In this document: positions 15,170 through 61,679 of the stretch, in pieces
How the letters are laid out: each line of letters begins with the position of its first letter
Numbering within the stretch: position 1 is the first letter of the stretch
Assembly (NCBI GenBank): GCA_035482045.1
Contig: DATHRD010000015.1
Coordinates: forward strand, 14,597-78,596
Length of the DNA: 64,000 nt
Reading direction: 5' to 3'
Source of the DNA: Thermoanaerobaculia bacterium
Lineage (GTDB): Bacteria > Acidobacteriota > Thermoanaerobaculia > Gp7-AA8
The notes under the pieces: generated by a model
What the model was told of the DNA's origin: nothing
The model's database searches: none
Seen by the model: the letters and a program-made list of their open reading frames with translations, nothing else
Position numbers and translations under genes: made by a program

Positions 15170-15415
15170 ACAACACCATCGAGAATGGCGATGTCGCCAA
15201 GAAAGATGGCGATGTTGCCATCGAACATGGCGATGTTGCCTTCGAAAATGGCGATATCGCCCCCAAAGATGGTGATTTGCCAAAAAAGATGGCGATGTCG
15301 CCCCCAAAGACGGCGATGTTGCCATCAAGGTTGATGATGTTGCCAAAAAAATGATGATGTCGCCAAGAAAAATGGCGAGGTTGTCATCCGAAGTGAGGAC
15401 GTTGCCATCACTCTC
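15170..15415. repeat. tandem array of about 11 degenerate 21-bp units, each containing the palindrome ATGGCGATGTTGCCAT
   Basis: gatggcgatgttgccatcgaac / atggcgatgttgccttcgaaa / atggcgatatcgcccccaaa ... Low-GC relative to the flanks. Lies upstream of the NCS1 permease gene and downstream of the dihydropyrimidinase gene. Confidence 0.8.
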
Positions 15416-21189: not shown

Positions 21190-22587
21190 ATGCGCAGATT
21201 CGTTTTCGCAGCCGCGGTTTGCACGCTCATCGCGCTTCCCCTGGCCGCTCAGAACACCGACATCGAGTCGCTCTCCGGCCTGCAGTTCAACTTCGGCAAT
21301 CCCGGTGCCCGCTCGCTCGGCATGGGCGGTGCGTTCCTCGGCCTGGCCGATGATGCGTCCGCCGCTGAGGCCAATCCGGCCGGGCTCACAATCCTGAGGA
21401 AGCCCGAGATCACGATCGAAGGGCGCAACTATCAGGAAGAACAGGTCTTCACGACGAGTGGCACGTATCCCGACCTCCAGCGCACTGCGTTCAGCCACTA
21501 CAGCCAACGCGTCGACCCGACCTTCGCCAGCATCGTCTATCCGACGAAGTACTTCACCTTCGGCGCCTACTACCACGAGCCCCTCCGCAATGAAGGGACG
21601 GGCCAGGTGGTGCCTGTGCGCAACACCTTCACCGGCGAGATCAAGACAGACGTCCCCAACTTCTTCCTCCCGGTCGACTCCAACGGCAATCCGACCGGCG
21701 GCCCGATCACGTCCGCCGCATGCGACGCTCTGCGCGTGAATAACCCGTTCGCCTGCCTCGAGTACACGGTCCTGCCCTTTCTCAGCTCCGTCAAGATTCA
21801 GGAAAGGACGCTCGGCGTGGCCGCGGCGTTCAAGATCGGCACCTTATCCTTCGGCGCCGCGGCGCGCTTCCAACGTTTCAACGAGACGGCCTTCACATTC
21901 CGCGTGACGCCGACGGGCGACTTCTCGAGCATCTCCGTGCAGGCTTCGAGCGACATCACCAGCAACAATTCCGTCGCCAAAGATCAGACCGACCTCACCT
22001 TCTCCGGCGGCTTCAAGTGGGCGCCGACCGACAAGTTCTCGCTCGGCGGCGTCTACAAGCAGGGAGCGAAGTACGCCACGCCGACCTTTGCCGCGAACGA
22101 CACCACCAACTTCGCGTTCGTCAAAGCCGCCGACACGACGTTCCATATCCCCGATGTCTTCGGCGCCGGCGTCTCCTACCGTCCCATCCCCGTGCTGACG
22201 GTCAACGCCGACGTCGTGCGTGTGAAGTACTCGAATCTCGTCGACGACTTCGTCTCCATCAATGCCACCGTGCGTGCCATCGATCATGCATACAAGGCGG
22301 CCGATGCCACGGAGCTCCACCTCGGCGGCGAGTACTTCTTCTCGACGAGGATTCCGTTCGCCATGCGCGCCGGCTACTGGCGCGACCCGCAGCACTCCAT
22401 CACCTACACGGGCCCGCTCCAGAACGCGGACGAGGTGGCCGCGGCGTTGCTCTTCCCGAAGACGAAGTCTCAGAACCACGTCTCCGTCGGCGCGGGCCTG
22501 GCATGGCCCCGCTTCCAGATCGACGCCGCCTACGACAGGTCGGAACTGTTCAAGGTCGGGTCGATTTCGATGGTGACGAGGTTCTAG
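21190..22587 (+). CDS. FadL/OmpP1/TodX-family outer membrane beta-barrel transporter
   Basis: Signal peptide MRRFVFAAAVCTLIALPLAAQ. N-terminal LGMGGAFLGLADDASAAEANPAGL (NPA motif). C-terminal aromatic residue (F). Confidence 0.65.
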   Translation: MRRFVFAAAVCTLIALPLAAQNTDIESLSGLQFNFGNPGARSLGMGGAFLGLADDASAAEANPAGLTILRKPEITIEGRNYQEEQVFTTSGTYPDLQRTAFSHYSQRVDPTFASIVYPTKYFTFGAYYHEPLRNEGTGQVVPVRNTFTGEIKTDVPNFFLPVDSNGNPTGGPITSAACDALRVNNPFACLEYTVLPFLSSVKIQERTLGVAAAFKIGTLSFGAAARFQRFNETAFTFRVTPTGDFSSISVQASSDITSNNSVAKDQTDLTFSGGFKWAPTDKFSLGGVYKQGAKYATPTFAANDTTNFAFVKAADTTFHIPDVFGAGVSYRPIPVLTVNADVVRVKYSNLVDDFVSINATVRAIDHAYKAADATELHLGGEYFFSTRIPFAMRAGYWRDPQHSITYTGPLQNADEVAAALLFPKTKSQNHVSVGAGLAWPRFQIDAAYDRSELFKVGSISMVTRF

Positions 22588-22589
22588 AG

Positions 22590-22734
22590 GTGGTTGCTGA
22601 GTTGCAAGGTTGCTGGGTCTCTCGGCAGCGCGGTCTCGCAGTAGCGCGGCGGCCACGAGCAGAGACCGCGAGACTTCGAAACCGCGAGACTTCGAGACCC
22701 AGCAACCCAGCAACCCGCATCACAGCAACCCGCA
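22590..22734. repeat. inverted repeat element combining GTTGCTG / CAGCAAC units with GCGGTCTCG / CGAGACCGC cores
   Basis: gttgctgagttgcaaggttgctgggtctc...gcggtctcg ... cgagaccgcgagacttcgaaaccgcgagacttcgagacccagcaacccagcaacccgcatcacagcaacccgcatcacag. Confidence 0.8.
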
Positions 22735-23382
22735 TCACAGCCCTTCCAGCGGCAAATCGAGCAGCTCGAACTTATCCCAGCCGCGAAAGTCGAAGTGCCA
22801 CCATTCGGATGGCAATGGGTCGAAGCCGTGGCTGATCATGGCCTCCCGCAGCTTGGCGCGATTCGCGAGAACCTCGGCCGGCAGGTCGTTGAAGTCCTGG
22901 CGCGCCCGAGGGGTGAAGTCGTCGTAGCCGGTGGGCATCGGCAGCTCGCGGCCGGTGTGCAGATCGATGAGCGTCAGATCGACGGCCGCGCCGCGGTTGT
23001 GACGCGAGCCTTTGGCCGGGTCGGCGACGAAGTCGGGATTGCGGATCGGTTTCCACATCTGTACAGTCACGCGATAGGGCCGATAGCCGTCGAAGATCTT
23101 CAACCCCAGCCCCTGGCGCGCCAGATCGCGCTCGACATCGTGCAGTGCGATCGCGGCCGGGCGGCGCAGGAAGACTCGCGGCACCGGATACAACTGCTCG
23201 TGCATGAAGTTGTTCGTGGTGGCGTAGCGCACGTCACGCGGGAGGTCGGTGATCTCGACCAGCCGTTTGTCGGGGTCGGCAGCCACGAGCCGGTCGTACT
23301 CGGCGACATCGCGGACGACGGGCGGATGCGTCGTCGCGCATGCGGTCGCAAGGAGCAGCAATAGGGCGAGGGCTCTTCTCAT
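22735..23382 (-). CDS. D-Ala-D-Ala dipeptidase (VanX/DdpX, M15 family) lipoprotein
   Basis: SRHNRGAAVDLTL and EWWHFD motifs. Lipobox LLLLATAC. Confidence 0.75.
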   Translation of the reverse strand: MRRALALLLLLATACATTHPPVVRDVAEYDRLVAADPDKRLVEITDLPRDVRYATTNNFMHEQLYPVPRVFLRRPAAIALHDVERDLARQGLGLKIFDGYRPYRVTVQMWKPIRNPDFVADPAKGSRHNRGAAVDLTLIDLHTGRELPMPTGYDDFTPRARQDFNDLPAEVLANRAKLREAMISHGFDPLPSEWWHFDFRGWDKFELLDLPLEGL

Positions 23383-24569
23383 CGCGACATCCCCGGCGCC
23401 ACTTTCGTCATGAAGTCTTCCATATTCTTCATCACCCGCTTCGAATCGTGGTTATTGAAGTCGAACCAGAGCATCAGCCGGTCGTCAGGGTGGAAACGCT
23501 CGGTGATCTGCTTCGCGATCATCTCGGCATTGCCGATGAGGGCGTTTTCCGTGGCACGCTGCACCTTCACCTCATCGAGCGTCCCCTCGAGCGCGCGCCA
23601 GTAATTGATCAATGCCGCCCGTGCCTCCTCGGCCGCACGCGGCGGATCGTCGTGGATGAAGACCAGGACCGTGCGAGGCATCAGCCGCCGCTGCCAGCCG
23701 CCGCCGTCCGGATGATATGCGGTAGCCATCCGCTCGTTCGTCTTCTGGATTTCGTCGCCCGGCGTGATCGATAGATTGAAAACGCCGACCGGCAGGATCG
23801 TGTTGGCGAAGACCTGCGTTGCCGCATCGTGCGAGCCGATCGACAGCCGCAGCAGCTCCATCCGCGATTCCCGCGGCACGATCTTCAGATTCGGAAACAC
23901 CCAGCGCGGCGCCAACGGAATCTCGTCGGCGCTCTGTCCGCAAGCGTCCACGACACGCTGCCAGTCGCCATCGGAGCGAAAGTCTTTCGGTTGAAGCGAG
24001 CGATTCGCGATCATCGACGAGCTCAGAGTCTCCCCGCGCAGCAAACGGAGAAAGATCTCCGTCGCCTCTTCGAAGATTTTGTTTTTCACCACCGGCCAGG
24101 CAGCTTCCTCCACCGGCGTGCGCGGCACGATCCCGTACGGGATGTTGATGAACGGAAAGCGGCCCGCCGCGAAGCCGATCGTGAGCAGGCGCCGCTCCTT
24201 CGGATCGAGCCCGTGGAGAGCGAGAAACGTCTTGATCCTCTCCGCTGCCGCGATTGGGCCGCCGTTGCAGAGGATGTTCATGATCGCCGATCCGACGCCG
24301 ATCTGCTTCGTCCTTGCGAAGATCCGATGCCCGAGCTGCAGGATGTCGGTATTGAGCCCGATCTCTCCGACGAAATGCGGGATGACCGCTCCCCGATTCG
24401 TCTTCTGAACCTCCGTCGACAGATGACTCTCCGCCACCCATGCCGTCCCGAACCCGAGCCGGTCCGCGAGGATCACCTGCTCGAAGAAGTTCTCGAACAT
24501 GACCCGCTCGCTCGGCATGTAGCCGTTGACCTCGGTCTGCGAGATGGAGAAGAAGACGTCGAGCTCCAT
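23379..24569 (-). CDS. LLM-class (luciferase-like) flavin-dependent oxidoreductase
   Basis: MELDVFFSISQTEV...DRLGFGTAWVAEHH-like N-terminus. Start chosen at internal M (24569). Confidence 0.65.
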   Translation of the reverse strand: MELDVFFSISQTEVNGYMPSERVMFENFFEQVILADRLGFGTAWVAESHLSTEVQKTNRGAVIPHFVGEIGLNTDILQLGHRIFARTKQIGVGSAIMNILCNGGPIAAAERIKTFLALHGLDPKERRLLTIGFAAGRFPFINIPYGIVPRTPVEEAAWPVVKNKIFEEATEIFLRLLRGETLSSSMIANRSLQPKDFRSDGDWQRVVDACGQSADEIPLAPRWVFPNLKIVPRESRMELLRLSIGSHDAATQVFANTILPVGVFNLSITPGDEIQKTNERMATAYHPDGGGWQRRLMPRTVLVFIHDDPPRAAEEARAALINYWRALEGTLDEVKVQRATENALIGNAEMIAKQITERFHPDDRLMLWFDFNNHDSKRVMKNMEDFMTKVAPGMSR

Positions 24570-24589
24570 GGCTTCGGGGATCGTATAGG

Positions 24590-24665
24590 AATGGGGGTGG
24601 GGAGTGGCGGGTGGGGAGTCGGAGAACCTATCATTCGGAATGACAGATATCCCCACCCTCCACTC
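24590..24665. repeat. G-rich / C-rich palindrome of the GGGGTGGGGAGTGG family in a divergent intergenic region
   Basis: atgggggtggggagtggcgggtggggagtcgg ... tccccaccctccactccc, followed by TATAAT at about 24668-24673. Confidence 0.75.
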
Positions 24666-24679
24666 CCTATAATCCCCGC

Positions 24680-25744
24680 GTGCCCTTCAACGAAAACCAC
24701 CCCGTCAACTTCGCGCGGGCGATGCCGAACTGGCAGCCGCTGGTCGAATATCGGCGGAATGGCGTCGCGGAGAACACGATCCACGGCGCTGTGTCGTGGG
24801 TTTCGGGGAGGAGCGTCGTCCATTCGTTCGGCGGCAACGTCGAGGTCTACGGGCGGTCGATGGTCAAGCCGATCATGATGAAGGTCTTCGTCCGCGAGTT
24901 TGCGCGGGCGCTCAATGGCGAGCAGAAGGCCATTTCCGTTGCCTCTCACAACGGTGACACCGAGCATGTGCGCGTGGCCCGGTCGATCCTCATGCAGGGC
25001 GAATGGGGCCTCATGCAGGCTCCGCTCGACGTCCCCCTCGTGCAGTTCGGCCGGCAGGTGCGTCGTCCGCGCCGCTGGTATCACTGCTGCTCGGGAGAGC
25101 ACGCGGCCATCCTTCGCGGCTGCAAGCTGAAAGGGTGGTCCCGCGTCGGCTACGTCTGGCCCCATCACCCCTTCTTCCAGGAGTATCTGGCCTACATTCG
25201 CCACGTCCTCGGCGGCGAGTGGAAGCAGGGGACGATCGCCAAGGACGGCTGCGGATTGCCGACGGTTTCGATGACCGTCACCGACCTGGCCAGGCTCTTC
25301 GCCAACCTCGTCACCGAGAAAAACGACGACTGGATCTGGCAGGCCATGATCGAACATCCCGACCTCATCGGCGGCTTCAATCGTCTCGACTCGACCGTCC
25401 TCAAGGCCTGTCACGGTCGCGTGCTGGCCAAGGAAGGCGCTGACGGACTCCTCGGGCTGGCCATCGAACATCCCGAGTATCCCGAGGGCCTCGGCGTGGT
25501 CGTGAAGATCGCGCACGGCTGGAACCCGCAAGCGACGTGGTACATCGCCCGTTACATCCTCGGCGTTTTGGGGTTCGAGTTCCGCAATCCCTACAAACTG
25601 CGCCGCCAGAAAGCGTTCATCGTCCCCGAGGTCATCCCGCCGGGTCTCAGAGACCGGATGGCCGCCATCGTCCCGTGGGACTCATGGGATCCGGACATCG
25701 ACAAATGGGAGTTCGAGCCGGAGGAGTTCCTTGCCGCTCGCTAA
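24680..25744 (+). CDS. asparaginase_II (PF06089)-like protein
   Basis: HCCSGEHAA and DGCGLPT resemble the Cys-Lys-Cys zinc-site motifs of Rhizobium-type asparaginase II. GTG 24680 lies 7 nt after the TATAAT. Alternative ATG at 24722. Confidence 0.5.
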   Translation: MPFNENHPVNFARAMPNWQPLVEYRRNGVAENTIHGAVSWVSGRSVVHSFGGNVEVYGRSMVKPIMMKVFVREFARALNGEQKAISVASHNGDTEHVRVARSILMQGEWGLMQAPLDVPLVQFGRQVRRPRRWYHCCSGEHAAILRGCKLKGWSRVGYVWPHHPFFQEYLAYIRHVLGGEWKQGTIAKDGCGLPTVSMTVTDLARLFANLVTEKNDDWIWQAMIEHPDLIGGFNRLDSTVLKACHGRVLAKEGADGLLGLAIEHPEYPEGLGVVVKIAHGWNPQATWYIARYILGVLGFEFRNPYKLRRQKAFIVPEVIPPGLRDRMAAIVPWDSWDPDIDKWEFEPEEFLAAR

Positions 25745-27155
25745 CTTCATCGGAGGCGTCTTCGTTCCGCCGCACTCCGGTGCGTACTTCGACGACATCA
25801 ACCCTGCCACCGCCGAGGTCATCGCGCAGATTCCGGATAGTGACGAACGCGATATCGAGGATGCCGTGGGCGCGGCGAAAGCGGTGTTTCCGGCATGGTC
25901 GCGCACGCCTGCCGCGGAACGAAGCAACCTGCTTCTGAGGCTCGCCGATCTCATCGAACTGAACCTCGACGAGCTTGCCCGATGCGAGTCGATCGACAAC
26001 GGCAAGACGATCTCGCTGGCGAGGCGGTTGGACATCCCTAGGGCCGTGGCCAACTTCCGTTTCTTCGCCACGGCCATCCTCCACCAGTCCAGCGAGGCCC
26101 ACATCACGGATGCGACCGCTCTGAATTACACATTGCGGCAACCGCTCGGCGTCGTCGGTCTGATTTCGCCATGGAATCTGCCACTTTATCTGCTCTCATG
26201 GAAGATCGCCCCGGCCGTCGCCACGGGAAACACGTGCGTCGCCAAGCCGAGCGAGCTGACGCCGCTGACAGCCAATCGCCTGGCCGAGTTGTCGATCGAA
26301 GCAAGGATCCCGCCGGGCGTGATCAACATCGTCCACGGCTACGGCAACAAGGCCGGACGTGCGCTGACCTGTCACGAGGACGTCGCCGCGATCTCTTTCA
26401 CCGGCGGTACGGTCACCGGTGCCGCCGTGGCGGCAAACGCCGCGCCGCGATTCAAGAAGCTCTCTCTCGAGCTCGGGGGCAAAAACCCGAACATCATCTT
26501 CGCCGATGCCGATCTCGACGACGCTGTGGCCACGTCGATCCGTTCCAGCTTCTGGAACCAGGGAGAGATCTGTCTCTGCGGATCGCGCATCTTGGTCGAG
26601 CGTTCCATCCACGATGAATTCGTCGGGCGTTTTACCGCAGGCGTGAAGAAACTGCGCATCGGCGATCCGCTCGACGACGCCACCGACATCGGCGCTCTGA
26701 TCAGCGAGGTCCACCTGCAAAAGGTCATGGGGTACATCGATCTGGCAACGAAAGAGGGCGGCACCGTCGTGGCCGGTGGTCATCGCCTGGATCGTTCCGG
26801 CTATTTCGTCGAGCCGACGATCGTGACCGGCCTTGGGTGCGATTGCCGCGTTCTGCAGGAAGAGATCTTCGGTCCCGTGGTGACCGTCACCCCCTTCGAC
26901 AGCGAGGAGGAAGCCGTCCGCTTTGCCAACTCCACACGCTACGGCCTCTCCGCCACCGTCTGGACGCGCGACCTTTCGCGGGCCCATCGTGTCGCCGCAT
27001 CGCTCGATGCCGGCACGGTTTGGATCAACTGCTGGCTCCTCCGCGACCTCCGCGTCCCCTTCGGTGGGATGAAGGAGAGCGGGGTAGGACGCGAGGGGGG
27101 CGTCGAGTCGCTGGAGTTCTTTACCGAGGCGAAGAATGTTTGCGTGAGGATCTAG
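25731..27155 (+). CDS. NAD(P)-dependent aldehyde dehydrogenase (hydroxy/aminomuconic semialdehyde dehydrogenase-like)
   Basis: ELGGKNP, catalytic QGEICLCGSR, FGGMKESG. Confidence 0.8.
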   Translation: MPLANFIGGVFVPPHSGAYFDDINPATAEVIAQIPDSDERDIEDAVGAAKAVFPAWSRTPAAERSNLLLRLADLIELNLDELARCESIDNGKTISLARRLDIPRAVANFRFFATAILHQSSEAHITDATALNYTLRQPLGVVGLISPWNLPLYLLSWKIAPAVATGNTCVAKPSELTPLTANRLAELSIEARIPPGVINIVHGYGNKAGRALTCHEDVAAISFTGGTVTGAAVAANAAPRFKKLSLELGGKNPNIIFADADLDDAVATSIRSSFWNQGEICLCGSRILVERSIHDEFVGRFTAGVKKLRIGDPLDDATDIGALISEVHLQKVMGYIDLATKEGGTVVAGGHRLDRSGYFVEPTIVTGLGCDCRVLQEEIFGPVVTVTPFDSEEEAVRFANSTRYGLSATVWTRDLSRAHRVAASLDAGTVWINCWLLRDLRVPFGGMKESGVGREGGVESLEFFTEAKNVCVRI

Positions 27156-36094: not shown

Positions 36095-37087
36095 CTACCT
36101 CTTCGCGCGGAGCGCGGCCTCGTGAGCACGCGCACGATCGAGCGCCTTTTCGAGGGTGCGAACGACCTCGCTCGCGGAGGCCAGCAGCGACTCCAGCTCC
36201 ACCCGCTCCGCGCCCGTGTCGTGAATCTCCGTGGCACCCGCGGCAAACGGGTCGTCTGCCCCGTCCGGCTCGACCTCGACGGCGACCACGGCGCCGAAGG
36301 GATCTTCCTCTTCAGCTACGTGGACTTCGATCGGTTCCGCCTCGAACGGTGAGACCGTGACCGTCTCGTCGGCGTCGAACGACGGCTGGGCAGGCGTCGT
36401 TTTCATCGACAGCTTCGGAGTTCCCGCCGACGTCGGCGTCACGCCCGATCTCGCTGACATATCCGGCGCGCCAAGCTCCGGCTCCTCGTGCAACGTCGTG
36501 TCGACGTTGTTCTTGAGATTGTCGAGGATGCGGGATACCGCGGCGCGGAGCGTAGCAGTGACGCCGCTACCGGTGATGGCCGCCGCCTCAACGGTCGGTA
36601 CTCCGTTCGGATTCAAATACTCGTTCATCACCTCGACCGAGTCGATGTTCGGCAGGTCACGCTTGTTGTACTGGTAAACCAGGGCCACTTTCCCCGGATC
36701 GATGCGGTTGATCCGGAGATTCGTCTTCAGGTTCTCCAGGCTGTCGAGGTTCGAGTCGCGCATCGTCGACTGCGAGTCGGCCACGAAGACCACGCCGTCG
36801 GCACCGCGCAGCACGAGCTTTCTCGTGGCGTTGTAGAACACCTGGCCGGGCACGGTGTAGAGCTGCACGCGTACTTTCTGACCGGCGATCGTGCCCAGCT
36901 CCATCGGCATGAAGTCGAAAAAGAGGGTCCGGTCCGTCTCCGTCGACATCGAGATCATCTTGCCCTTGTTGTCGAGCTTCGGATTTCCGTAGATCTTCTC
37001 GAGATTCGTGGTCTTCCCGCACAGGCCTGGCCCGTAATAGACGAGCTTGACCGTCACCTCGTTGATCGCCTTGTTGATCAGGACCAT
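36095..37087 (-). CDS. mglA: MglA-family Ras-like small GTPase with a long acidic C-terminal extension
   Basis: KLVYYGPGLCGKTTNLEKI...STETDRTLFFDF...LYTVPGQVFY...YQYNKRDLP is near-identical to MglA core motifs. About 130 aa of extra acidic C-terminus. No mglB adjacent. Confidence 0.8.
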   Translation of the reverse strand: MVLINKAINEVTVKLVYYGPGLCGKTTNLEKIYGNPKLDNKGKMISMSTETDRTLFFDFMPMELGTIAGQKVRVQLYTVPGQVFYNATRKLVLRGADGVVFVADSQSTMRDSNLDSLENLKTNLRINRIDPGKVALVYQYNKRDLPNIDSVEVMNEYLNPNGVPTVEAAAITGSGVTATLRAAVSRILDNLKNNVDTTLHEEPELGAPDMSARSGVTPTSAGTPKLSMKTTPAQPSFDADETVTVSPFEAEPIEVHVAEEEDPFGAVVAVEVEPDGADDPFAAGATEIHDTGAERVELESLLASASEVVRTLEKALDRARAHEAALRAKR

Positions 37088-37099
37088 GGCGGGATTAGC

Positions 37100-37240
37100 T
37101 TACCTGATGTTGGGGGGTGGGGAGTGGGGGTGGGGAGTGGGAGAGGGAGTCGCGGTGGGAAGCTACTGCTCTGAAATCCAACTCCCAACTGCCACTCCCA
37201 CCCCCCACTCCCCACTCCCCACCCCCCACCCCGCGATATC
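37100..37240. repeat. G-rich / C-rich long palindrome of the GGGGTGGGGAGTGG family between mglA-like and eda-like genes
   Basis: ggggggtggggagtgggggtggggagtgggagagggag ... ctcccaactgccactcccaccccccactccccactccccaccccccacccc. Confidence 0.8.
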
Positions 37241-37248
37241 CTTTCCTC

Positions 37249-37926
37249 ATGTCCCGCAAAGAACTGTTCGAAAAAGTGTCGCTGGAGCAGATCATCGGTG
37301 TCGTGCGTGAAGAGAGCGTCGAGGCCGCTGAGTCGGTGGCCGAGGCGTATGCGCGCAACGGTATCCGCCTCCTGGAGGTGACGTTGACGACGCCCAAGGC
37401 GTTCGACCTCATTGCCCGATTCGCGCAGAAGTACGCGCCGCTCGACGTCGTCATCGCCGCGGGCACCGTGCGCAGTTCAAACGACGCCGCACAGGCACAG
37501 CGGGCTGGCGCAAGGGTCATCGTCTCGCCCCACACCGACGTGGGCGTGATCGAGTACGCGAATGAGAACGATCTTCTCTGCGTCGCCGGCGCCGGTACAG
37601 CCACGGAAATCGTTCGTGCATTCGAGGCTGGCTGCGACATCGTGAAGGTGTTCCCGGCGCTCTACCTCGGCGGTCCCGACTACATCCGAACACTGCGCGG
37701 TCCGATTCGCGACGTGCCGATGCTGGCCGGCGGCCCGGTGCCGCTCGACGCGATCGAAAGCTATCTCGATGCCGGCTGCATCGCCGTGAACCTCGGAGCC
37801 TCGCTGGCCGTGCCGGAGTTGGTGCAGACCGAGCAGTGGGAGGAGATCGGCCGCCGCGCGCTTCTGGCGACCTCGATTGTGCAGTCGCGCAACGTCGCCG
37901 TCGAGTCCGACTCTTACGTCCACTGA
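37249..37926 (+). CDS. eda: KDPG / 4-hydroxy-2-oxoglutarate aldolase family protein
   Basis: IRLLEVTLTTP, IAAGTVRS, GTATEIVRAFEAGCDIVKVFPA. Confidence 0.7.
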   Translation: MSRKELFEKVSLEQIIGVVREESVEAAESVAEAYARNGIRLLEVTLTTPKAFDLIARFAQKYAPLDVVIAAGTVRSSNDAAQAQRAGARVIVSPHTDVGVIEYANENDLLCVAGAGTATEIVRAFEAGCDIVKVFPALYLGGPDYIRTLRGPIRDVPMLAGGPVPLDAIESYLDAGCIAVNLGASLAVPELVQTEQWEEIGRRALLATSIVQSRNVAVESDSYVH

Positions 37927-37928
37927 TC

Positions 37929-39239
37929 GTGAGCGGATTGATTCAGAAGGCATACCTCGTTCCGGGGCAGCCGCATATTCTCCTTGCGCCGGACCGCAGC
38001 TCGGGCTGGGCGTCGCTCCGGCAGAGCTACGAGGCGATCGGCCGTGAGATCGAACGCTCCGGCGCGGAGCTGATGCTGCTCTATTCGACGCAATGGTTCT
38101 CCGTCATCGGCCATCTTTTCCAGACCGCTCCGAATCCGAAATGGACGTTGGTCGATCAAAACTGGTACGAGCTCGGCGAGATCCCCTATTCGTTCCGCGT
38201 CGATCCGGAGTTCGGAACGCTCTACGCCGGCATCTGCAAGGATCTCGGCATGCAGACGGCGACCGTCGACTATCACGGCTTCCCGATCGACACCGGTACC
38301 GTCGTCGCTCTCAAGCTGCTCAATCCCAACAATGCCGTGCCCGCGTCCGTGGTCTCGTGCAACATCTACGCGGAGCGCGATGAGACACGCGCCCTCGGCC
38401 GCGCCGCCCGGACCGCGATCGACCGCTACGGCAGAAAGACGATCGTCGTGGTGGTCTCGAATCTCTCCAACCGCTACGAGGTCGGCGACATCGACCCGGC
38501 ACAGGACCACATCTCCTCGTCGAAGGACGACGAATGGAACCGCAAGATCCTGGAGATGCTGGGCGAAGGCCGGCTCGAGGATGTGGCCCAGGTTGCCCGC
38601 GAGTTCGGCCGCGAGGCCAATGCCGACATGGGTTTCAAGGCCATCTGGTGGCTGGGCGCGCTCGCGGGCGAGAACAACAAGTACGACGGCAAGGTGTGGG
38701 ACTACCAGCCGGTCTGGGGTACGGGAAACGCGCTCGTCGAGCTGACGCCCAATCTGCACAAGGAGCTCGACTTCGAGAAGGAGTTCGACGAGGGGCCCGT
38801 CGATGCAGGAACGGGGCTGGAATCGCACAACGTGATCGCCGGCGGTTCAGAGGCGCTCGAGTCGGGCTTCAAGATCATCGCGCCCCAGGCTGCTTCTCCC
38901 GTCGGTGCCTATCCTCACGCACGCCGCGTTGGCGATCTGCTCTTCCTTTCCGGCATCGGGCCGCGGCGGCCGGTCACCAATGAAATCCCCGAAGGGATCG
39001 AGGCTCAGACGCGGGCCGCGGTCGACAATGTCCGGGCGATTCTCGAAGCGGCGGGCAGCTCGCTGGAGAAAATCCTGGACGTGACTGTCTATTTGACTGA
39101 CATGAAAGGCGACTTCGAGCGATTCAACCGGGTTTATACCGAGGTCCTCGGGATGATCCAGCCCACACGCACCACCGTGGGGGTCGACTCGTTGCCGACC
39201 CCGATCTCCGTCGAGATGAAGATCATCGCGTCAGCCTGA
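37929..39239 (+). CDS. class III extradiol ring-cleavage dioxygenase (LigB family) fused to a C-terminal RidA/YjgF-like domain
   Basis: GTG start immediately after the eda stop. C-terminal AYPHARRVGDLLFLSGIGP...VTVYLTDM is RidA-like. N-terminal about 300 aa is LigB-like. Confidence 0.45.
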   Translation: MSGLIQKAYLVPGQPHILLAPDRSSGWASLRQSYEAIGREIERSGAELMLLYSTQWFSVIGHLFQTAPNPKWTLVDQNWYELGEIPYSFRVDPEFGTLYAGICKDLGMQTATVDYHGFPIDTGTVVALKLLNPNNAVPASVVSCNIYAERDETRALGRAARTAIDRYGRKTIVVVVSNLSNRYEVGDIDPAQDHISSSKDDEWNRKILEMLGEGRLEDVAQVAREFGREANADMGFKAIWWLGALAGENNKYDGKVWDYQPVWGTGNALVELTPNLHKELDFEKEFDEGPVDAGTGLESHNVIAGGSEALESGFKIIAPQAASPVGAYPHARRVGDLLFLSGIGPRRPVTNEIPEGIEAQTRAAVDNVRAILEAAGSSLEKILDVTVYLTDMKGDFERFNRVYTEVLGMIQPTRTTVGVDSLPTPISVEMKIIASA

Positions 39240-39868
39240 TGACTCTCATCGACATTTCGCCTGTGATCGATGCCGCGATCAACGTCTGGCCGGGCGATAC
39301 ACCGTTCGTACGGACGATCAACGCCGACTTGAACGACGGCGCGAACCTGACGCTCAGCGACATCCGGACGTCGCTGCACGTCGGCGCGCATGCCGACGCG
39401 CCGAGCCATTACGTCGCGAACGGCGCCGACATCGCCTCGCGGCCGCTCGATCTCTACCTCGGCCTCTGCGTCGTTGTACACGTCGACGTCGCGCGCGGGG
39501 AGCGAATTACGCCCGACCATGTCGCGGACAAGTGCGAGGCTCTCACTGCACCGCGCGTCCTCTTTCGCACGGGGACGTTTCCCGACCATCGCCACTGGAA
39601 CAACGACTTCGCCAGCCTCTCACCCGAGCTGGTCGACGATCTCCACCACCACGGCGTTCGCCTCATCGGCATCGACACCCCCTCGGTCGATCCGTTCGAC
39701 TCGAAAGCGCTCGAGGCGCATCAAGCCTTCGCCAGGAACGACATGGCCATGCTCGAGGGACTCGTGCTCGACGGTGTCGAAGAAAGGGAGTACGAGCTGA
39801 TCGCTCTGCCGCTGCGAATCAAGGGTGCCGATGCCAGTCCCCTGCGGGCGGTGCTGCGAACGCTGTGA
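39239..39868 (+). CDS. cyclase-family protein (kynurenine formamidase KynB-like)
   Basis: HVGAHADAPSHY metal-binding motif of the cyclase / arylformamidase family. Confidence 0.6.
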   Translation: MTLIDISPVIDAAINVWPGDTPFVRTINADLNDGANLTLSDIRTSLHVGAHADAPSHYVANGADIASRPLDLYLGLCVVVHVDVARGERITPDHVADKCEALTAPRVLFRTGTFPDHRHWNNDFASLSPELVDDLHHHGVRLIGIDTPSVDPFDSKALEAHQAFARNDMAMLEGLVLDGVEEREYELIALPLRIKGADASPLRAVLRTL

Positions 39869-39879
39869 CCGAGGCCCCA

Positions 39880-40215
39880 GAGTCGATGTTTTGTCTCCCG
39901 GAGCAAAAGCTTTGACTCCCAGAGCCCAAGTCTTGACTCCCAGAGTCGAAGTTTTGACTGACAGAGTCGAAGTTTTGACTCCCGGAGTCGAAGTTTTGAC
40001 TCCCGGAGTCGCACTTTAGACTCCCAGAGTCGCACTTTAGACTCCCAGAGTCGCACTTTAGACTTCCGGAGTCGCACTTTAGACTTCCGGAGTCGCACTT
40101 TAGACTTCCGGAGTCGCACTTTAGACTCCCAGAGTCGCACTTTAGACTCTCAGAGTCGCACTTTAGACTCTCAGAGTCGCACTTTAGACTCTCAGAGTCG
40201 ATGCTTAGGCTCACT
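39880..40215. repeat. tandem array of about 15 copies of a 21-bp unit GAGTCGCACTTTAGACTCCCA, forming continuous alternating palindromes GAGTC...GACTC
   Basis: Early copies are the variant gagtcgaagttttgactccc[ag]. Later copies are gagtcgcactttagact[ct]cc[ag]. Lies in a convergent 3-prime/3-prime intergenic region. Confidence 0.85.
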
Positions 40216-55446: not shown

Positions 55447-56157
55447 ATGACCTGGTACCGGGAATGGTTCGGTGAGGAGTACCTGGAGCTCTATGCGCAT
55501 CGTGACGAGCACGAGGCCCGGCGGCAGGTCGCGTTCTTCCGCGAGCACTTCACTAAAGTCGACGGCATCATTCTTGACCTGGCCTGCGGTACGGGACGCC
55601 ACCTCGCGGAGATGAACGTGGAGGGCATCGTCGCAGTCGGCTGCGATCTTTCATTCACGCTCCTCCGTGCGGGCATCGACGAACATGGGCTGCTGCCGGT
55701 GGCACGCGCCGACATGCGCTCGTTGCCGTTCTGCAGCAACAGCTTCGGCGGCCTGGTCAACTTCTTCACGAGTTTCGGATACTTCGCGAAGGAAGACGAG
55801 AACCTGCAGGTGGTGCGCGAGATGGCGCGCGTACTGCGCTCCGGCGGCGTTTTCCTCTTCGACTATCTCAATGTCGACCGGGAGCTCGACAAGCTGGTCG
55901 AGCGCGAGACGCTGGATACGCCGAGCGGGCGGGTGGAGATCGAGCGGTGGTTCGACCCCCGTGACCGTTCGTTCAACAAACGGATCACGATCGGTCAAAA
56001 GCGTTACCTTGAGCGCGTTCGCGGATACGATCTCCATGAGATCTCCACGATGTTCACCTCCTCGGAACTGTTGATCCGCGAATCGTTTGGCGACTTTCAC
56101 GGCGCGCCGTTCGACGCCTCGTCGCCTCGTCTCATCCTGGTCGGGAGCAGAAGATGA
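55447..56157 (+). CDS. class I SAM-dependent methyltransferase
   Basis: ILDLACGTGRH motif I. Post-I acidic residue. Motif II LRSGGVFLFD. Confidence 0.75.
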   Translation: MTWYREWFGEEYLELYAHRDEHEARRQVAFFREHFTKVDGIILDLACGTGRHLAEMNVEGIVAVGCDLSFTLLRAGIDEHGLLPVARADMRSLPFCSNSFGGLVNFFTSFGYFAKEDENLQVVREMARVLRSGGVFLFDYLNVDRELDKLVERETLDTPSGRVEIERWFDPRDRSFNKRITIGQKRYLERVRGYDLHEISTMFTSSELLIRESFGDFHGAPFDASSPRLILVGSRR

Positions 56158-57680
56158 TGAGCGGCGCCGCGTTGGAGGCCGCCTGTCTTCGAATTCCGCT
56201 GACGACGTACGGCTTGAACCCATTCACGCTCGACTGGATGGCCGGCCACTCCAGCGCTACGCGGTTCCTTCCACGAAACGCGGCGGGGAGTTCCAGCCCG
56301 ACCGCCCATCCACCCGCCCTCGCGGACGCCCTGATCGCATCCAACCGCCAATGGGGCCGTGACGTCGGCGACGAAGTTCTCCGCTGGTCTCGCGGCGAGA
56401 CCTTCACGGTCATCGCCGGCCAGCAGGTCGGCTTCGCCGGCGGCCCGATCTACACACTGGCCAAGCTCACCGGAATGCTGAAGCTGAAGCGTGAAAACGA
56501 GAAGCGCGGCATTCCGACGACGGTTTTCTTCTGGCTGGCCACCGAAGACCACGACTTCGCGGAGGTGGCCACGCTGGCGTTGCCGAAGCGCGACCCGAAG
56601 CAGCAACTCGACCTCACGACATTTCGCGCGCGGCACCATGAATCGAAAACCGCCGTCGGCGGGCTGCCGGTCCCCGAGGAGCTGACGCGAGCGCTCGTCG
56701 AATACCTGGACATTCCCCGACCGGCATGGCTGCGCGAGGGCATCACCTTCCGGGACTCGTTCGCGGAGCTGATCAGCGAGGCAGTCGATGGCGGCTTCAT
56801 CCTCGTGGACGCGCTCCTTCCTGAGCTGCGCCGCGCCGGCGCGCCGGTGTTCGACGGGATACTCACGAACTGGGACCGCATTCAGCGCGAGCTGGAACTG
56901 CGCGCCGAGGCGCTGCAAAGTGCCGGTTACACGCCGCAGGTCGTGCCCCGTCCCGGCGAGGCGCACACGCTGCTCTTTGAGCTCGATGAGAACGGCCGGC
57001 GCGAGCTGATCGACAAGCCACGGCCGCTGGCCGCGCCGGAGAGGACATCGACTTCCGCGCTGACCCGTCCCCTGCTCCAGGATTCCGTGCTCCGCCCCGA
57101 CCTGTTCGTCGGGGGACCGGCCGAGGTCGCGTATTACGCGCAGATCGCGCCGCTGCACGAGCTACTCGGTATTGCCATGCCCCGCGTCGCGTTGCGCGCG
57201 CACGAGATGCTCGCGCCGAGGCGCATCGTGCGAACCGTTGCGCGCTACGACATCAGGCCCGAGGAGATTTTCGCCGGAGCCGACGCGCTGCTCGCGGCGC
57301 GCGAGCCCTCCGGCGTCGCCGAGGTACGGACCATCGCTCGAAACGCGCGGCACGAGCTCGCCGAACAGATCACCCGAATCGGCGAGATCGCGCTCCCTGC
57401 CGAGCACGCGCTCGCCCGCGCCATCAGCCGGTCCATCGGTCACATCGAGTACCACTTCGACAAACTGGCCGAACGCGCCATCCTCGGACTGGCGCGGAGG
57501 GATCGCGAGCGATATGCCGCCGTCCGCGAACTGGTGACCACGCTCGTTCCCGACGGCGTTGCCCAGGATCGCGTGACCGGCTGGTTCGGTTACTGGCAGG
57601 AGTATGGCCAGCATCTCGTCGGCCGCATGATCGATGAAGCGGAACAGGACGAGGATGTATGCAAGGTGGTGAGTTTGTGA
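56154..57680 (+). CDS. bshC: bacillithiol biosynthesis cysteine-adding enzyme BshC-like
   Basis: VIAGQQVGFAGGPIYTLAK resembles the BshC GQQ.G..GP.YT motif. About 508 aa. Adjacent to bshB and bshA. Confidence 0.6.
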   Translation: MMSGAALEAACLRIPLTTYGLNPFTLDWMAGHSSATRFLPRNAAGSSSPTAHPPALADALIASNRQWGRDVGDEVLRWSRGETFTVIAGQQVGFAGGPIYTLAKLTGMLKLKRENEKRGIPTTVFFWLATEDHDFAEVATLALPKRDPKQQLDLTTFRARHHESKTAVGGLPVPEELTRALVEYLDIPRPAWLREGITFRDSFAELISEAVDGGFILVDALLPELRRAGAPVFDGILTNWDRIQRELELRAEALQSAGYTPQVVPRPGEAHTLLFELDENGRRELIDKPRPLAAPERTSTSALTRPLLQDSVLRPDLFVGGPAEVAYYAQIAPLHELLGIAMPRVALRAHEMLAPRRIVRTVARYDIRPEEIFAGADALLAAREPSGVAEVRTIARNARHELAEQITRIGEIALPAEHALARAISRSIGHIEYHFDKLAERAILGLARRDRERYAAVRELVTTLVPDGVAQDRVTGWFGYWQEYGQHLVGRMIDEAEQDEDVCKVVSL

Positions 57681-58408
57681 TCGATGGACTCGAGCCGGTC
57701 GACCTGATTTTCTTCGGCGCGCATGCCGACGACATCGAGCTTTCGTGTGGCGGCACGATCGCGAAGGGGGTGCAGGACGGGCTGCGCATCGGCATCATCG
57801 AGCTGACGCGCGGCGAGCTGGGGACACGTGGCACGCCGCGGGTCCGCCGGCGCGAGGCGCTCAAGGCAGCGAAGATCCTGGGAGCCCGTTTCCGCGAGCA
57901 TCTCGACTTCGGAGACGGCGGCATGCGCACCGGCCGCGAGGAGGAGCTGCAGGTCATCGAGATCGTCCGCCGCTGCCGGCCGAAGCTCGTCTTCAGCATG
58001 TGGCCCGATGACCGGCATCCGGATCACATTCGAACCGGACGGATCGTCACCGAGGCGTCGTTCTACTCCGGGCTGCGCCAGTTGGAGACCGGCCTTCCCG
58101 CGCACCGGCCGCAGGCGACGATTTACTATCCGCAGAACTATCTCGTCACGCCGAGCTTCGTGGTCGACGTCACGAAGACCTGGAAGACGAAGATGCGCGC
58201 CGTCGCCGCGTTCAAGTCGCAGTTCTACGACCCGAAATCGAAAGAGCCGCCCACGTTCATCGCGGACAAGAAGTTTCTGGAGATGATCGAGGCGCGTGGC
58301 CGCCACTTCGGCGCGCTGATCGGCGTCGAGTTCGGCGAAGCGTTCATGACAAAGCAGCCGCCGAAGGTCGATGACGTGATCGCCGCGTACAGCGGGAGGG
58401 AGCCGTGA
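57656..58408 (+). CDS. bshB: PIG-L/LmbE-family deacetylase (BshB-like)
   Basis: LIFFGAHADDIELSCGGTIAK ... PDDRHPDH zinc-site motifs. Confidence 0.7.
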   Translation, partial: CMQGGEFVIDGLEPVDLIFFGAHADDIELSCGGTIAKGVQDGLRIGIIELTRGELGTRGTPRVRRREALKAAKILGARFREHLDFGDGGMRTGREEELQVIEIVRRCRPKLVFSMWPDDRHPDHIRTGRIVTEASFYSGLRQLETGLPAHRPQATIYYPQNYLVTPSFVVDVTKTWKTKMRAVAAFKSQFYDPKSKEPPTFIADKKFLEMIEARGRHFGALIGVEFGEAFMTKQPPKVDDVIAAYSGREP

Positions 58409-58414
58409 GAGCTG

Positions 58415-58493
58415 TTGCGAAGTGGCGCGGTTGCGGGGTCTCGCGGCGGCCGGCTACCGCGCGACCTCGGAACCGCGAGACTGCGAGACCGCG
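58415..58493. repeat. GCGGTCTCGCGG palindromic element abutting the bshA start codon
   Basis: gcggttgcggggtctcgcgg ... ccgcgagactgcgagaccgcg ATG. Confidence 0.75.
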
Positions 58494-59612
58494 ATGAGAA
58501 TCGGCATCACCTGCTATCCCACATTCGGAGGCTCGGGCGTTGTGGCCACGGAGCTCGGCGTCGCCCTGGCCCGCGGCGGCGACGACGTTCACTTCATAAG
58601 CTACGCCATGCCGTCGCGCCTCAACGTGCTGCACGAGCGCGTCCGCTTTCACGAGGTAACGGTCACGCCGTATCCCCTGTTTGATCCGTACCCGCCCTAC
58701 ACGCTGGCTCTGGCCACGAAGATGGCCGAGGTGGCCGTTTACGAAAAGCTCGACATCCTCCACGTGCACTACGCGATCCCGCACGCCATCAGCGCGCACC
58801 TGGCGCGCGAGATCGTCGGCTCGAAGGACCTTCGCTTCATCACGACGCTGCACGGTACCGACATAACGCTCGTCGGACGCGACGCAAGTTATCTGCCGAT
58901 CACCAGGTTCGGCATCGAGGTGTCCGACGGCGTGACCGCGGTGTCGGAATGGCTTCGAAAAGAGACCGCGAAGAACTTCGCCACCGAGAAGGAAATCGAA
59001 GTCATCCCGAACTTCGTCGATCCGGCCCGATTCCGCAAGCACGACAGCTCTCTCTCGAATCTTTTCTCCTCTTCGGGCGAGAAGCTGCTCTGTCATGTCT
59101 CCAACTTCCGCCCCGTCAAACGGATCATGGACGTGCTCGTGGTGTTCGAGCGCGTGTCGCGCGTGGTGCCCAGTCGTCTGGTGATGATCGGCGACGGCCC
59201 GGACCGTTCCCTCGCGGAGGCCTTCTGCCGCGACCATCACCTGCGCGAGAAAGTCTTTTTCCTCGGCAACGTTCCGAACCTCGAGGAGGTCGTTGGCGCC
59301 GCGGACGTTTTTCTCCTCCCGTCCGAGGCCGAGTCATTCGGTATGGCCGCTCTCGAAGCGATGGCCTCCGAGGTGCCGGTGATCGGCAGCCGTGCCGGCG
59401 GCCTGACCGAAGTCGTCGTGGAGGGAGAGACCGGCTACCTTCTCCCCGTCGGCGACGTCGAAGCGATGGCCGAGCGCGCCATCGAGATCCTCTCGAATCC
59501 CGACCTCCACCGCCGCCTGGGGCGGAATGGGCGGGATCTGGCGGAGGGGAAGTTCAACGTGAATCGTGTGGTGCCGAGGTATCGGGAGTTCTACGAGAGG
59601 GTGATCGGGTAG
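58494..59612 (+). CDS. bshA: GT4 glycosyltransferase BshA-like (N-acetylglucosaminyl-malate synthase)
   Basis: [22 protein letters not shown] is a BshA-type N-terminus. C-terminal E..E GT4 motif. Confidence 0.7.
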
Positions 59613-59657
59613 GGTGGGAACGCGTCATCACCGCGCGGCGTTAGAATAGTTGTCATC

Positions 59658-61129: not shown

Positions 61130-61620
61130 TCAGTCATGGCTGTGAATCCGTCCATTCCAGACCCCGTGACTTGATGTCCCAGACCCCGAGACCTGATGTT
61201 CTGAACCCCGTGGATTGACGTCCCAAACCCCGAGACCTGACGTTCCACACTTCGGGACTCGCGTTCCGTACCCGGGACCTGACGTTCCGCACCCCGGGAC
61301 CTGACGTTCCGCACCCCGGGACCTGAGGTTCCGGACCCCGGGACCTGACGTTCCACACCCCGGGACCTGACGTTCCGGACCCCGAGACCTGACGTTCCGG
61401 ACCCCGAGACCTGACGTTCCGCACCCCGGGACCTGACGTTCCGGGCCCCGAAACCTGACGTTTCACACCCCGGGACCTGACGTTACGGACCCCGAGACCT
61501 GACATTACGCACCCTGGGACCTGACGTACCAAACCCCGAGACCTGACGTACCAAACCCCGAGACCTGACGTTACGGACCCCGAGACCTGACGTTACGGAC
61601 CCCGAGACCCGACGTTCCAC
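61130..61620. repeat. tandem array of about 20 degenerate copies of a 22-bp unit ACCCCGGGACCTGACGTTCCGC
   Basis: Copy variants accccgagacctgacgttccgg, accccgggacctgaggttccgg and others, with period 22. Closed by accgcgagaccgc at about 61620-61632. Confidence 0.85.
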
Positions 61621-61679
61621 ACCGCGAGACCGCATAACCTCGGCCCATGACCCACCTGCCGAAACTGCGCGACCGCGAA

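Follow-up and report, generated by a model that had tools for sequence, protein, structure and literature searches.

A pseudoenzyme dioxygenase subunit fused to a RidA-family domain in Thermoanaerobaculia, and the variant amn-type gene cluster to which it belongs

The subject of this analysis is a group of three genes located at positions 37249-39868 (+ strand) of a 64,000-nucleotide stretch of DNA, hereafter the window, from a Thermoanaerobaculia bacterium of the phylum Acidobacteriota (assembly GCA_035482045.1, contig DATHRD010000015.1, positions 14,597 to 78,596). These genes encode, in order, a class I aldolase of the 2-keto-3-deoxy-6-phosphogluconate/2-keto-4-hydroxyglutarate (KDPG/KHG) type (Eda), a protein in which a LigB-fold domain is joined to a RidA-family domain (the fusion), and a kynurenine (aryl)formamidase (KynB). 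Homology and residue content identify the LigB-fold domain as a pseudoenzyme, the AmnA-type alpha subunit of 2-aminophenol 1,6-dioxygenase. The fusion probably acts with a separately encoded catalytic beta subunit (AmnB type) in an aminophenol-type cleavage pathway tied to tryptophan, and the system as a whole is an undescribed variant of the amn-type meta-cleavage system. A search of the literature recovered no description of an AmnA-RidA fusion, of this cluster, or of Thermoanaerobaculia in connection with aminophenol.

The fusion gene (37929..39239, + strand) is a single continuous open reading frame (ORF) in which a profile search matches LigB (PF02900) at residues 10-266 (E 4e-16) and RidA (PF01042) at residues 323-437 (E 5e-27), and the LigB-RidA fusion and the LigB-like N-terminus proposed in the initial annotation are both real. 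The alpha domain (residues 1-275, 37929..38753, + strand) can be aligned from end to end with the known alpha subunits, and matches the solved ones (7txy_A at 1.4e-54, 8ihg_B at 2.4e-47, and 3vsg_A at 2.6e-45) far better than the solved catalytic beta subunits (5e-23 to 6e-25). The Comamonas enzyme binds its iron through His13, His62, and Glu251, and Tyr129 and His195 are second-sphere residues (PMC5291488). An alignment of these residue columns in 79 homologues of the fusion and nine beta sequences revealed the replacements His13->Gly, His62->Gln, His195->Asn, and Glu251->Asp in 79/79 of the fusions, as against H/H/H/E in 9/9 of the betas, while Tyr129 is replaced by Thr in the fusion of the window (FPIDTGT vs RVDYGT of the beta). 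Given that all the iron ligands and the catalytic histidine have been replaced, the LigB domain cannot be the ring-cleaving catalyst, and the “LigB-family extradiol dioxygenase” of the initial annotation is right as to the family, and wrong as to the catalysis. Neither “dioxygenase” nor a mere “Rid family hydrolase” is thus a suitable name for the fusion.

The alpha domain has nevertheless been conserved, with a ratio of nonsynonymous to synonymous substitution rates (dN/dS) of 0.07 in the clade of the window, compared with 0.12 in the clades in which a beta gene is adjacent, and it diverges less than the RidA domain, at the amino acid level, in the window's clade. Relaxed selection on an “orphan” alpha domain was considered, and was rejected on the basis of this dN/dS of 0.07. 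The structure of the fusion predicted from a shallow alignment of 25 sequences (predicted local distance difference test, pLDDT, of 42) was too poor for a fold search.

The two domains are joined by a variable linker (residues 276-314, 38754..38870, + strand), which is the most divergent segment of the protein, with an amino acid divergence of 0.31-0.36, in comparison with 0.14-0.21 in the two domains, and a dN/dS of 0.13-0.26. The total length of the fusion homologues ranges from 426 to 510 amino acids (aa). The RidA-family domain (residues 315-436 and the stop codon, 38871..39239, + strand) is a predicted 2-aminomuconate (enamine/imine) deaminase, and its second-best solved relative is the 2-aminomuconate deaminase AmnE (6izh, 6e-22). 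It has in common with AmnE, the conserved residues of which are listed in PMC6742747, the motifs SGxxPRRP, P-x-RTTV (with the equivalent of Arg117), and E-x-K-[VI]-[IV]-A (with the equivalent of Lys135). The arginine that binds the substrate carboxylate (Arg105 of RidA, Arg117 of AmnE) is also kept, in PTRTTV, which corresponds to PARTTV of 6izh. As the motifs, the arginine, and the lysine are all retained, the domain can credibly be classed as an AmnD/AmnE-type enamine/imine deaminase, which gives the RidA/deaminase-like assignment of the initial annotation the specific features of a 2-aminomuconate deaminase. Its action on 2-aminomuconate is a credible prediction from the genomic context, that is, the dioxygenase subunits and the semialdehyde dehydrogenase found in the same conserved cluster. 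Other combinations of these domains were also observed, including an 873-aa protein composed of an aldehyde dehydrogenase (ALDH) and three tandem RidA domains (P0133), a protein with three RidA domains in tandem (P0127), and proteins of 682-1034 aa in which LivM-like membrane permease domains are fused to an AmnA-like domain (P0149, P0156, and P0157).

Independent gene calls (ENA, JGI, and Logan assemblies) returned three products identical to those of the window, and a scan of one genome per species recovered the continuous fusion ORF from at least 523 species-level genomes, in addition to other phyla, so that the fusion is neither an assembly nor a frameshift artefact. The best 80 of these genomes all belong to Thermoanaerobaculia or Acidobacteriota. 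The upstream neighbors of the fusion were counted in 71 loci with enough upstream DNA, and a beta gene of the AmnB type (300-315 aa) was found within 700 nucleotides (nt) of the fusion in 45 of them. The proteins encoded by these adjacent genes retain every catalytic residue, and share 82-93% identity with one another. They are preceded by a fixed set of genes, which encode a FadL/TodX-type channel, a luciferase-like protein, an asparaginase-II-like protein (PF06089), and an ALDH, and this todX-lux-asnII-aldh order is repeated in the relatives. The ALDH is found in one cluster with the fusion in 45/71 loci and, in the beta-type relatives, its gene lies directly upstream of the beta gene and the fusion, or is set apart from beta, in many cases, by the gene of a 425-aa predicted membrane protein of no matching family (f18; some 20 loci in addition to L054:5383-6660). 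The space between the beta gene and the fusion is often occupied by the gene for a 23S-rRNA-intervening-sequence protein (PF05635).

The same upstream genes are present in the window, at positions 21190-27155. The first is a FadL/TodX-family outer-membrane channel (21190..22587, + strand; PF03349), which is the first gene of the cluster in many relatives. It is followed by a divergent luciferase-like protein, a putative monooxygenase of the flavin/F420 TIM-barrel type (23379..24569, - strand), which is inverted in the window and matches PF00296 weakly. It is 76% identical to the cluster orthologue of another Thermoanaerobaculia locus (L054), and 61% identical to the orthologues of Bacteriovoracia and Planctomycetota. 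No close solved relative of this family was found, and as the profile search against the PDB gave only a marginal match (E 0.0025), its subclass (Baeyer-Villiger type or other) is not assignable; the structure predicted from the single sequence (pLDDT 36) was too poor for a fold search. The third gene is a conserved cluster member that encodes an asparaginase-II-like hydrolase of the class 3 asparaginase family (24680..25744, + strand; PF06089), which matches ReAIV (8cly) at 2e-20, and adjoins the ALDH gene in every phylum sampled. The active site of the class 3 asparaginases has been described in PMC12292245 and PMC8602277, and the protein of the window keeps the two Ser-Lys tandems and both cysteines, together with the S-x-x-K, SHNG, DGC, and K-x-GA-x-G motifs, with the lysine of the zinc site replaced by glutamate (CSGEH).

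The fourth gene of the block (25731..27155, + strand) encodes an ALDH of the 2-aminomuconate 6-semialdehyde dehydrogenase (AMSDH) type, with 7bzv, 4u3w, 4npi, and 4i1w as its top PDB matches (E ~1e-138). It had been proposed as a candidate aminomuconic-semialdehyde dehydrogenase in the initial annotation, an assignment that is supported by this homology and by synteny (45/71). In the window, the ALDH gene and the fusion are 10.7 kb apart, and the approximately 10 kb between the block and eda contains glmS, alkA, ogt, a rhomboid protease gene, mnmA, purE, a cation diffusion facilitator (CDF) transporter gene, and mglA. The upstream block and the fusion are parts of one ancestral cluster, which has been split in the lineage of the window.

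The cluster extends well beyond the Acidobacteriota. Homologues of the beta protein with approximately 70% identity are found in Bdellovibrionota, Bacteriovoracia, Oligoflexia, Planctomycetota, and Sericytochromatia, and the gene order outside the Acidobacteriota was obtained from four loci. In the Bacteriovoracia locus, the luciferase-like, asparaginase-like, ALDH, and beta genes are followed by a single 467-aa alpha-RidA ORF and KynB, with two genes of the fumarylacetoacetate (FAA)-hydrolase family nearby. The Planctomycetota locus begins with tryptophan 2,3-dioxygenase (TDO), FKBP, a short-chain dehydrogenase/reductase (SDR), the luciferase-like gene, two genes of unknown function, and the asparaginase-like, ALDH, and beta genes, and it continues with two further genes of unknown function, a 510-aa alpha-RidA ORF, and KynB. 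A contig of the Bdellovibrionota type contains SDR, luciferase-like, asparaginase-like, and ALDH genes, further genes, beta, and a 494-aa fusion, while a further genome has the asparaginase-like and ALDH genes, further genes, beta, a 426-aa fusion, and KynB. A search of the Thermoanaerobaculia flanks recovered none of the FAA-hydrolase and SDR genes present in two of these out-group loci. The presence of the same cluster, with the alpha-RidA fusion, in several phyla indicates that the fusion is the usual form of the protein in an ancient, conserved cluster, rather than a peculiarity of the window.

The window itself contains no beta-like sequence other than the fusion, as established by tblastn searches with a PDB-derived fragment of AmnB, the LigB domain of the fusion, and a Thermoanaerobaculia beta. 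The eda-fusion-kynB group is therefore not a self-sufficient module, and a reading of the three genes as a self-contained compact module has to be abandoned, given that no beta gene was found in the 64-kb window and the ALDH gene is 10.7 kb away. When metagenomes were scanned with the beta protein, 66 of the loci recovered were informative, and the fusion lies downstream of beta in 40 of these, with no fusion within 6 kb in the other 26. The stand-alone betas have a conserved housekeeping context of their own, which consists of a 155-aa secreted protein, a BNR/sortilin protein, a nucleotidyltransferase, Maf, and MlaD. On contig Ga0247666_1000002, for example, purE-CDF-mglA-eda-fusion is found at ~269 kb and the stand-alone beta at ~211 kb, a distance of ~58 kb. 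On JBBRTE010000002.1, which represents the closest relative that could be checked for beta (its fusion is 84% identical to that of the window), eda-fusion is located within the first 10 kb and the stand-alone beta at ~360 kb, some 351 kb away. Two further contigs, paired by their length (765,237 and 2,519,354 bp), agree with this pattern, and both the beta and the 155-aa protein were confirmed on the 765,237-bp contig. Relatives with the gene order of the window encode the beta subunit elsewhere, 58-351 kb away on the same contig, and a beta gene would thus be expected in the window's own genome.

The 155-aa protein (L112:6903-7370 and 25 other loci, e.g., L167:3001-3468) is conserved, and always lies 3' of the relocated beta, with a 4-nt overlap. 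Its N-terminus resembles a signal peptide or that of a lipoprotein, it matches no Pfam family, and its 726 homologues all appear to belong to Thermoanaerobaculia. A number of the AmnB-like betas (P0272, P0281, P0290, P0295, and P0323) bear the NCBI name ‘tRNA U-34 5-methylaminomethyl-2-thiouridine biosynthesis protein’, which looks like a propagated misannotation; P0272 belongs to a single 90%-identity cluster of 1469 member sequences.

In the proposed pathway, the layout with beta directly upstream of the fusion would be the ancestral type, while in the lineage of the window beta would have moved to an unlinked locus, with eda in its place. The complex of beta and alpha-RidA would open the ring of an o-aminophenol to yield 2-aminomuconate semialdehyde, which the ALDH would convert into 2-aminomuconate, and the tethered RidA domain would then hydrolyze the enamine/imine to 4-oxalocrotonate and NH3. 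The tether may hold the deaminase close to a pathway with spontaneously cyclizing intermediates, while KynB would connect the pathway with an upstream source in tryptophan/N-formylkynurenine. Neither subunit of the Micromonospora enzyme is soluble on its own (PMC10470539). The analogy with the aminophenol pathway (AmnB plus AmnD) in the initial annotation holds for the most part, through the alpha subunit, the RidA domain of the 2-aminomuconate deaminase type, and the AMSDH-type ALDH.

A number of observations weigh against this pathway. No 4-oxalocrotonate decarboxylase or hydratase was found in the window, and there is no beta gene in the 9.4 kb past its end. A search with the 155-aa protein for the beta gene of the window's own metagenome-assembled genome (MAG; locus-tag prefix VLC46) also failed to recover it: no match was located on a contig of the same length as that of the window (118,552 or 90,820 bp), and none of the four MAG-derived matches that were looked up has this prefix. 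The kynB gene is adjacent in just 12 of the 40 loci in which beta is adjacent, and the candidate substrate may be 2-aminophenol, 3-hydroxyanthranilate, or another compound. Finally, as Eda is restricted to certain clades, its role in the pathway is a matter of conjecture.

The eda gene (37249..37926, + strand, 225 aa) encodes an ordinary member of its family, with matches to PF01081 (E 4e-34) and TIGR01182 (160.4 bits, in comparison with a cutoff of 156.05). Its best solved relative is the KDPG aldolase of T. maritima (1WA3/1VLW), in which the Schiff-base lysine motif ILKLFPG aligns with IVKVFPA of the window. Of the 71 loci, 24 have eda upstream of the fusion and 45 have beta, and the two are never found there together. 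Eda is a lineage-specific neighbor of the fusion, which takes the place of beta. The “KDPG-type aldolase” of the initial annotation can thus be retained as a family name, although not as a conserved member of the cluster, given that it is found upstream only where beta is absent. Canonical meta-cleavage pathways have class II aldolases of the DmpG/AmnG or HpaI type. Eda may be responsible for a late, pyruvate-releasing aldol cleavage of a 4-hydroxy-2-oxo acid, or may merely share the transcript.

It is also quite possible, if somewhat short of an even chance, that eda, the fusion, and kynB were brought together as the by-product of a genome rearrangement, and that Eda is functionally unlinked, serving the Entner-Doudoroff pathway or hydroxy-oxoglutarate metabolism. 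The presence of eda upstream only in the rearranged lineages, beside housekeeping genes (purE, CDF, and mglA), is consistent with this scenario, as are its unexceptional family scores. Against it, the spacing between eda and the fusion is kept at 2-6 nt across genomes whose fusions are only 69-92% identical, and the last step of a meta-cleavage pathway needs exactly a 4-hydroxy-2-oxo-acid aldolase.

The third gene product, KynB (39239..39868, + strand, 209 aa), matches PF04199 and exceeds the cutoff of the TIGR03035 arylformamidase equivalog (227.3 bits vs 223.05), while its matches to the solved kynurenine formamidases 4COB and 4COG reach 5e-51 and 8e-50, respectively. The HxGxHxDxPxH metal motif is intact, with SLHVGAHADAPSHY aligned to SPHTGAHVDGPLHY of 4COB. 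By these features, the arylformamidase-like cyclase of the initial annotation is a genuine kynurenine formamidase. The kynB gene lies directly after the fusion in 38 of 69 Thermoanaerobaculia loci (19/22 of the Eda type and 12/40 of the beta type), and also in Bacteriovoracia, Planctomycetota, and one further locus. Neither the window nor the flanking DNA of the Thermoanaerobaculia loci yielded a TDO gene, while a single Planctomycetota locus has one at a distance of 7 kb upstream of beta.

The adjacent KynB and, in Planctomycetota, TDO genes would also be expected if the cluster served the classical kynurenine pathway, in its 3-hydroxyanthranilate branch (catabolic or directed to NAD/quinolinate), in which AmnBA would stand in for the cupin-type 3-hydroxyanthranilate dioxygenase, and the ALDH and deaminase belong to the types that act following the decarboxylation of 2-amino-3-carboxymuconate semialdehyde (ACMS). 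This interpretation is improbable, nevertheless, given that kynurenine monooxygenase, kynureninase, ACMS decarboxylase, and nadC are absent from the four non-Acidobacteriota gene tables, as well as from the gene calls of the window and the recurrent gene families of the Thermoanaerobaculia loci. It would also leave the universally conserved luciferase-like and asparaginase-like genes unexplained.

The universal conservation of these two genes, which have no role in the pathway outlined above, suggests a route from kynurenine to 2-aminophenol. In this route, TDO, which is found occasionally in the cluster, and KynB would convert tryptophan into kynurenine, and the luciferase-like flavoenzyme would insert oxygen at the aryl ketone of kynurenine, in a Baeyer-Villiger reaction, to form a beta-aspartyl 2-aminophenyl ester or, following an O-to-N acyl shift, N4-(2-hydroxyphenyl)asparagine. 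The asparaginase-like Ser-Lys hydrolase would then release L-aspartate and 2-aminophenol, which AmnB and AmnA-RidA, the ALDH, and the RidA domain would take to 4-oxalocrotonate. This speculative route, which is based on chemistry and genomic context, covers every conserved gene, and a literature search for it found nothing relevant. That the cluster represents an undescribed route of tryptophan catabolism with 2-aminophenol as a natural intermediate is, at present, a rather doubtful proposition. If true, the joining of a trimer-forming RidA to a dioxygenase would build a multi-enzyme assembly for the handling of the unstable aminomuconate intermediates. In the Actinobacteria, a microcompartment is the answer to the same problem.

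The absence of an adjacent beta from 24 of the 71 loci raises the question of whether the alpha domain has acquired a new role that is independent of beta, such as oligomerization, scaffolding, or ligand sensing for the RidA deaminase, in which case the operon might serve general imine detoxification, or a different pathway with Eda and KynB. In one locus (L067:7387-7594), the arrangement is otherwise of the beta type, with the order ALDH, intervening-sequence protein, fusion, and KynB, and no beta between the ALDH and the fusion, which suggests that beta was lost or relocated independently here. This locus, together with the strong purifying selection on the alpha domain in spite of the missing adjacent beta, would be in keeping with a new role. 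This is quite improbable, however, given that the relatives with the gene order of the window keep beta on the same contig, beta loci lack a fusion in much the same proportion (39%) as genomes are of the Eda type (34%), and the luciferase-like, asparaginase-like, and ALDH partners are all kept in the window. Finally, the tight packing of the genes and the match to PF02900 notwithstanding, it is barely credible that the fusion has LigB-type extradiol dioxygenase activity in its own right, and that the three genes form a self-contained sequence of deformylation, ring cleavage, deamination, and aldol cleavage, given that both histidine ligands, the catalytic histidine, and the second-sphere tyrosine are replaced, and glutamate is changed to aspartate, in all 79 homologues, that the best matches are known inactive alpha subunits, that the relatives possess a distinct catalytic beta gene, which is highly conserved, alongside the fusion, and that the semialdehyde dehydrogenase step is encoded outside the group.

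The packing of the three genes on the + strand is operon-like, with a 2-nt gap followed by a 1-nt overlap, in agreement with the overlapping or abutting gene ends noted in the initial annotation. The TGA stop codon of eda (37924-37926) is separated by the 2-nt spacer from the GTG start codon of the fusion at 37929, and the TGA stop codon of the fusion (39237-39239) forms, with the ATG start codon of kynB at 39239, the junction TGATG, in which the last A of the stop codon is the first A of the start codon. There are no terminator-like sites on the + strand between eda, the fusion, and kynB, and eda and the fusion, at least, are probably co-transcribed.

The presumed promoter region of the transcript is the divergent mglA/eda intergenic region (37109..37232), in which no sigma-70-like promoter consensus was found. 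This region contains a G-rich tandem repeat (GGGGGTGGGGAGT, 3.7 copies) opposite a complementary C-rich tandem repeat, which together constitute an imperfect inverted repeat of 33-42 nt (the 33-nt arms are 88% complementary), and may possibly form a hairpin or a G-quadruplex. The adjacent MglA-like small GTPase (36095-37087, - strand) has the N-terminal sequence MVLINK...GPGLCGKTT and a Pro/Ala/Glu-rich C-terminal extension of ~130 aa; the database lists no Pfam match for the copy of the window, while that of a relative matches PF00071. Directly 3' of the kynB stop codon is an array of 15.5 copies of a 21-nt tandem repeat (39876..40201), which is the site of the only + strand terminator-like match of the region. 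Each unit of this array has a GACTC..GAGTC mini-palindrome, and its motif is restricted to the organism's own contigs in a comparison of 173 loci. Further intergenic arrays with a period of 21-22 nt are found at 15185-15407 (~9.6 copies) and 61155-61631 (21.8 copies). Elsewhere in the window, at ~56150-59650, consecutive genes for BshC, a PIG-L deacetylase, and a GT4 glycosyltransferase form a bacillithiol-type biosynthesis cluster.

To our knowledge, 2-aminophenol dioxygenase has been studied almost solely in the context of the degradation of xenobiotics (nitrobenzene and chloronitrobenzene). The beta protein considered here is 82-93% identical within the Thermoanaerobaculia and ~70% identical across phyla, with the same fusion partner and oxygenase-like and asparaginase-like genes, and often KynB. 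This conservation, together with the constancy of the partners, suggests that abundant soil bacteria share a natural substrate of this enzyme, for which tryptophan is the most plausible source.

Of the known systems, the kynurenine pathway of KynA (TDO) and KynB (4COB, 4COG, and 4CO9) is matched by the equivalog-level KynB with its metal motif, and by the TDO near the cluster of one Planctomycetota genome. In contrast with the bacterial kynurenine pathway, there is no kynureninase (KynU) nearby, and KynB is paired with an amn-type ring-cleavage cluster, rather than with anthranilate or 3-hydroxyanthranilate enzymes. Eda resembles the E. coli enzyme and T. maritima 1WA3 in its family profile score, which is above the cutoff, and its catalytic lysine motif, while differing from the known Eda genes in its position in an operon with aminophenol-pathway genes. 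The RidA domain is similar to AmnD/AmnE/NbaF (6IZH) in its fold, the Ser-Gly, the equivalents of Arg117 and Lys135, and the RTTV motif, and also in its genomic company, a dioxygenase and a semialdehyde dehydrogenase. The known deaminases are free-standing subunits of a homohexamer, however, whereas here the domain forms the C-terminus of a dioxygenase alpha subunit. The long Lp2 loop insertion of AmnE is also missing from the RidA domain of the window (alignment gaps), although the homologues from other phyla have an insertion at this point.

The closest dioxygenases are AmnBA/CnbCaCb, of Pseudomonas sp. AP-3 and Comamonas CNB-1 (3VSG and 8IHG), and the enzyme of the Micromonospora ARO microcompartment (7TXY), which likewise combine a LigB-type beta subunit, catalytic through its His/His/Glu iron site, with an alpha paralogue that has lost this site. 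The contiguity of the canonical amn operon (amnBACDFEHG-type) is not found in the window, where the alpha-deaminase gene and the ALDH gene are 10.7 kb apart, and the beta, decarboxylase, hydratase, and DmpFG-type genes were not found. Rather than adjacent amnBA genes, the lineage of the window has alpha and beta encoded at unlinked loci, and its cluster includes KynB and the luciferase-like and asparaginase-like genes, without the amnEFGH genes of the lower pathway. The alpha subunit of the present system also differs from that of AmnBA in being fused covalently to the deaminase of the pathway, a natural case of a downstream enzyme tethered to a pseudoenzyme subunit. Finally, while the hosts of AmnBA are known degraders of xenobiotics, the system described here is found in soil Acidobacteriota, Bdellovibrionota, and Planctomycetota.

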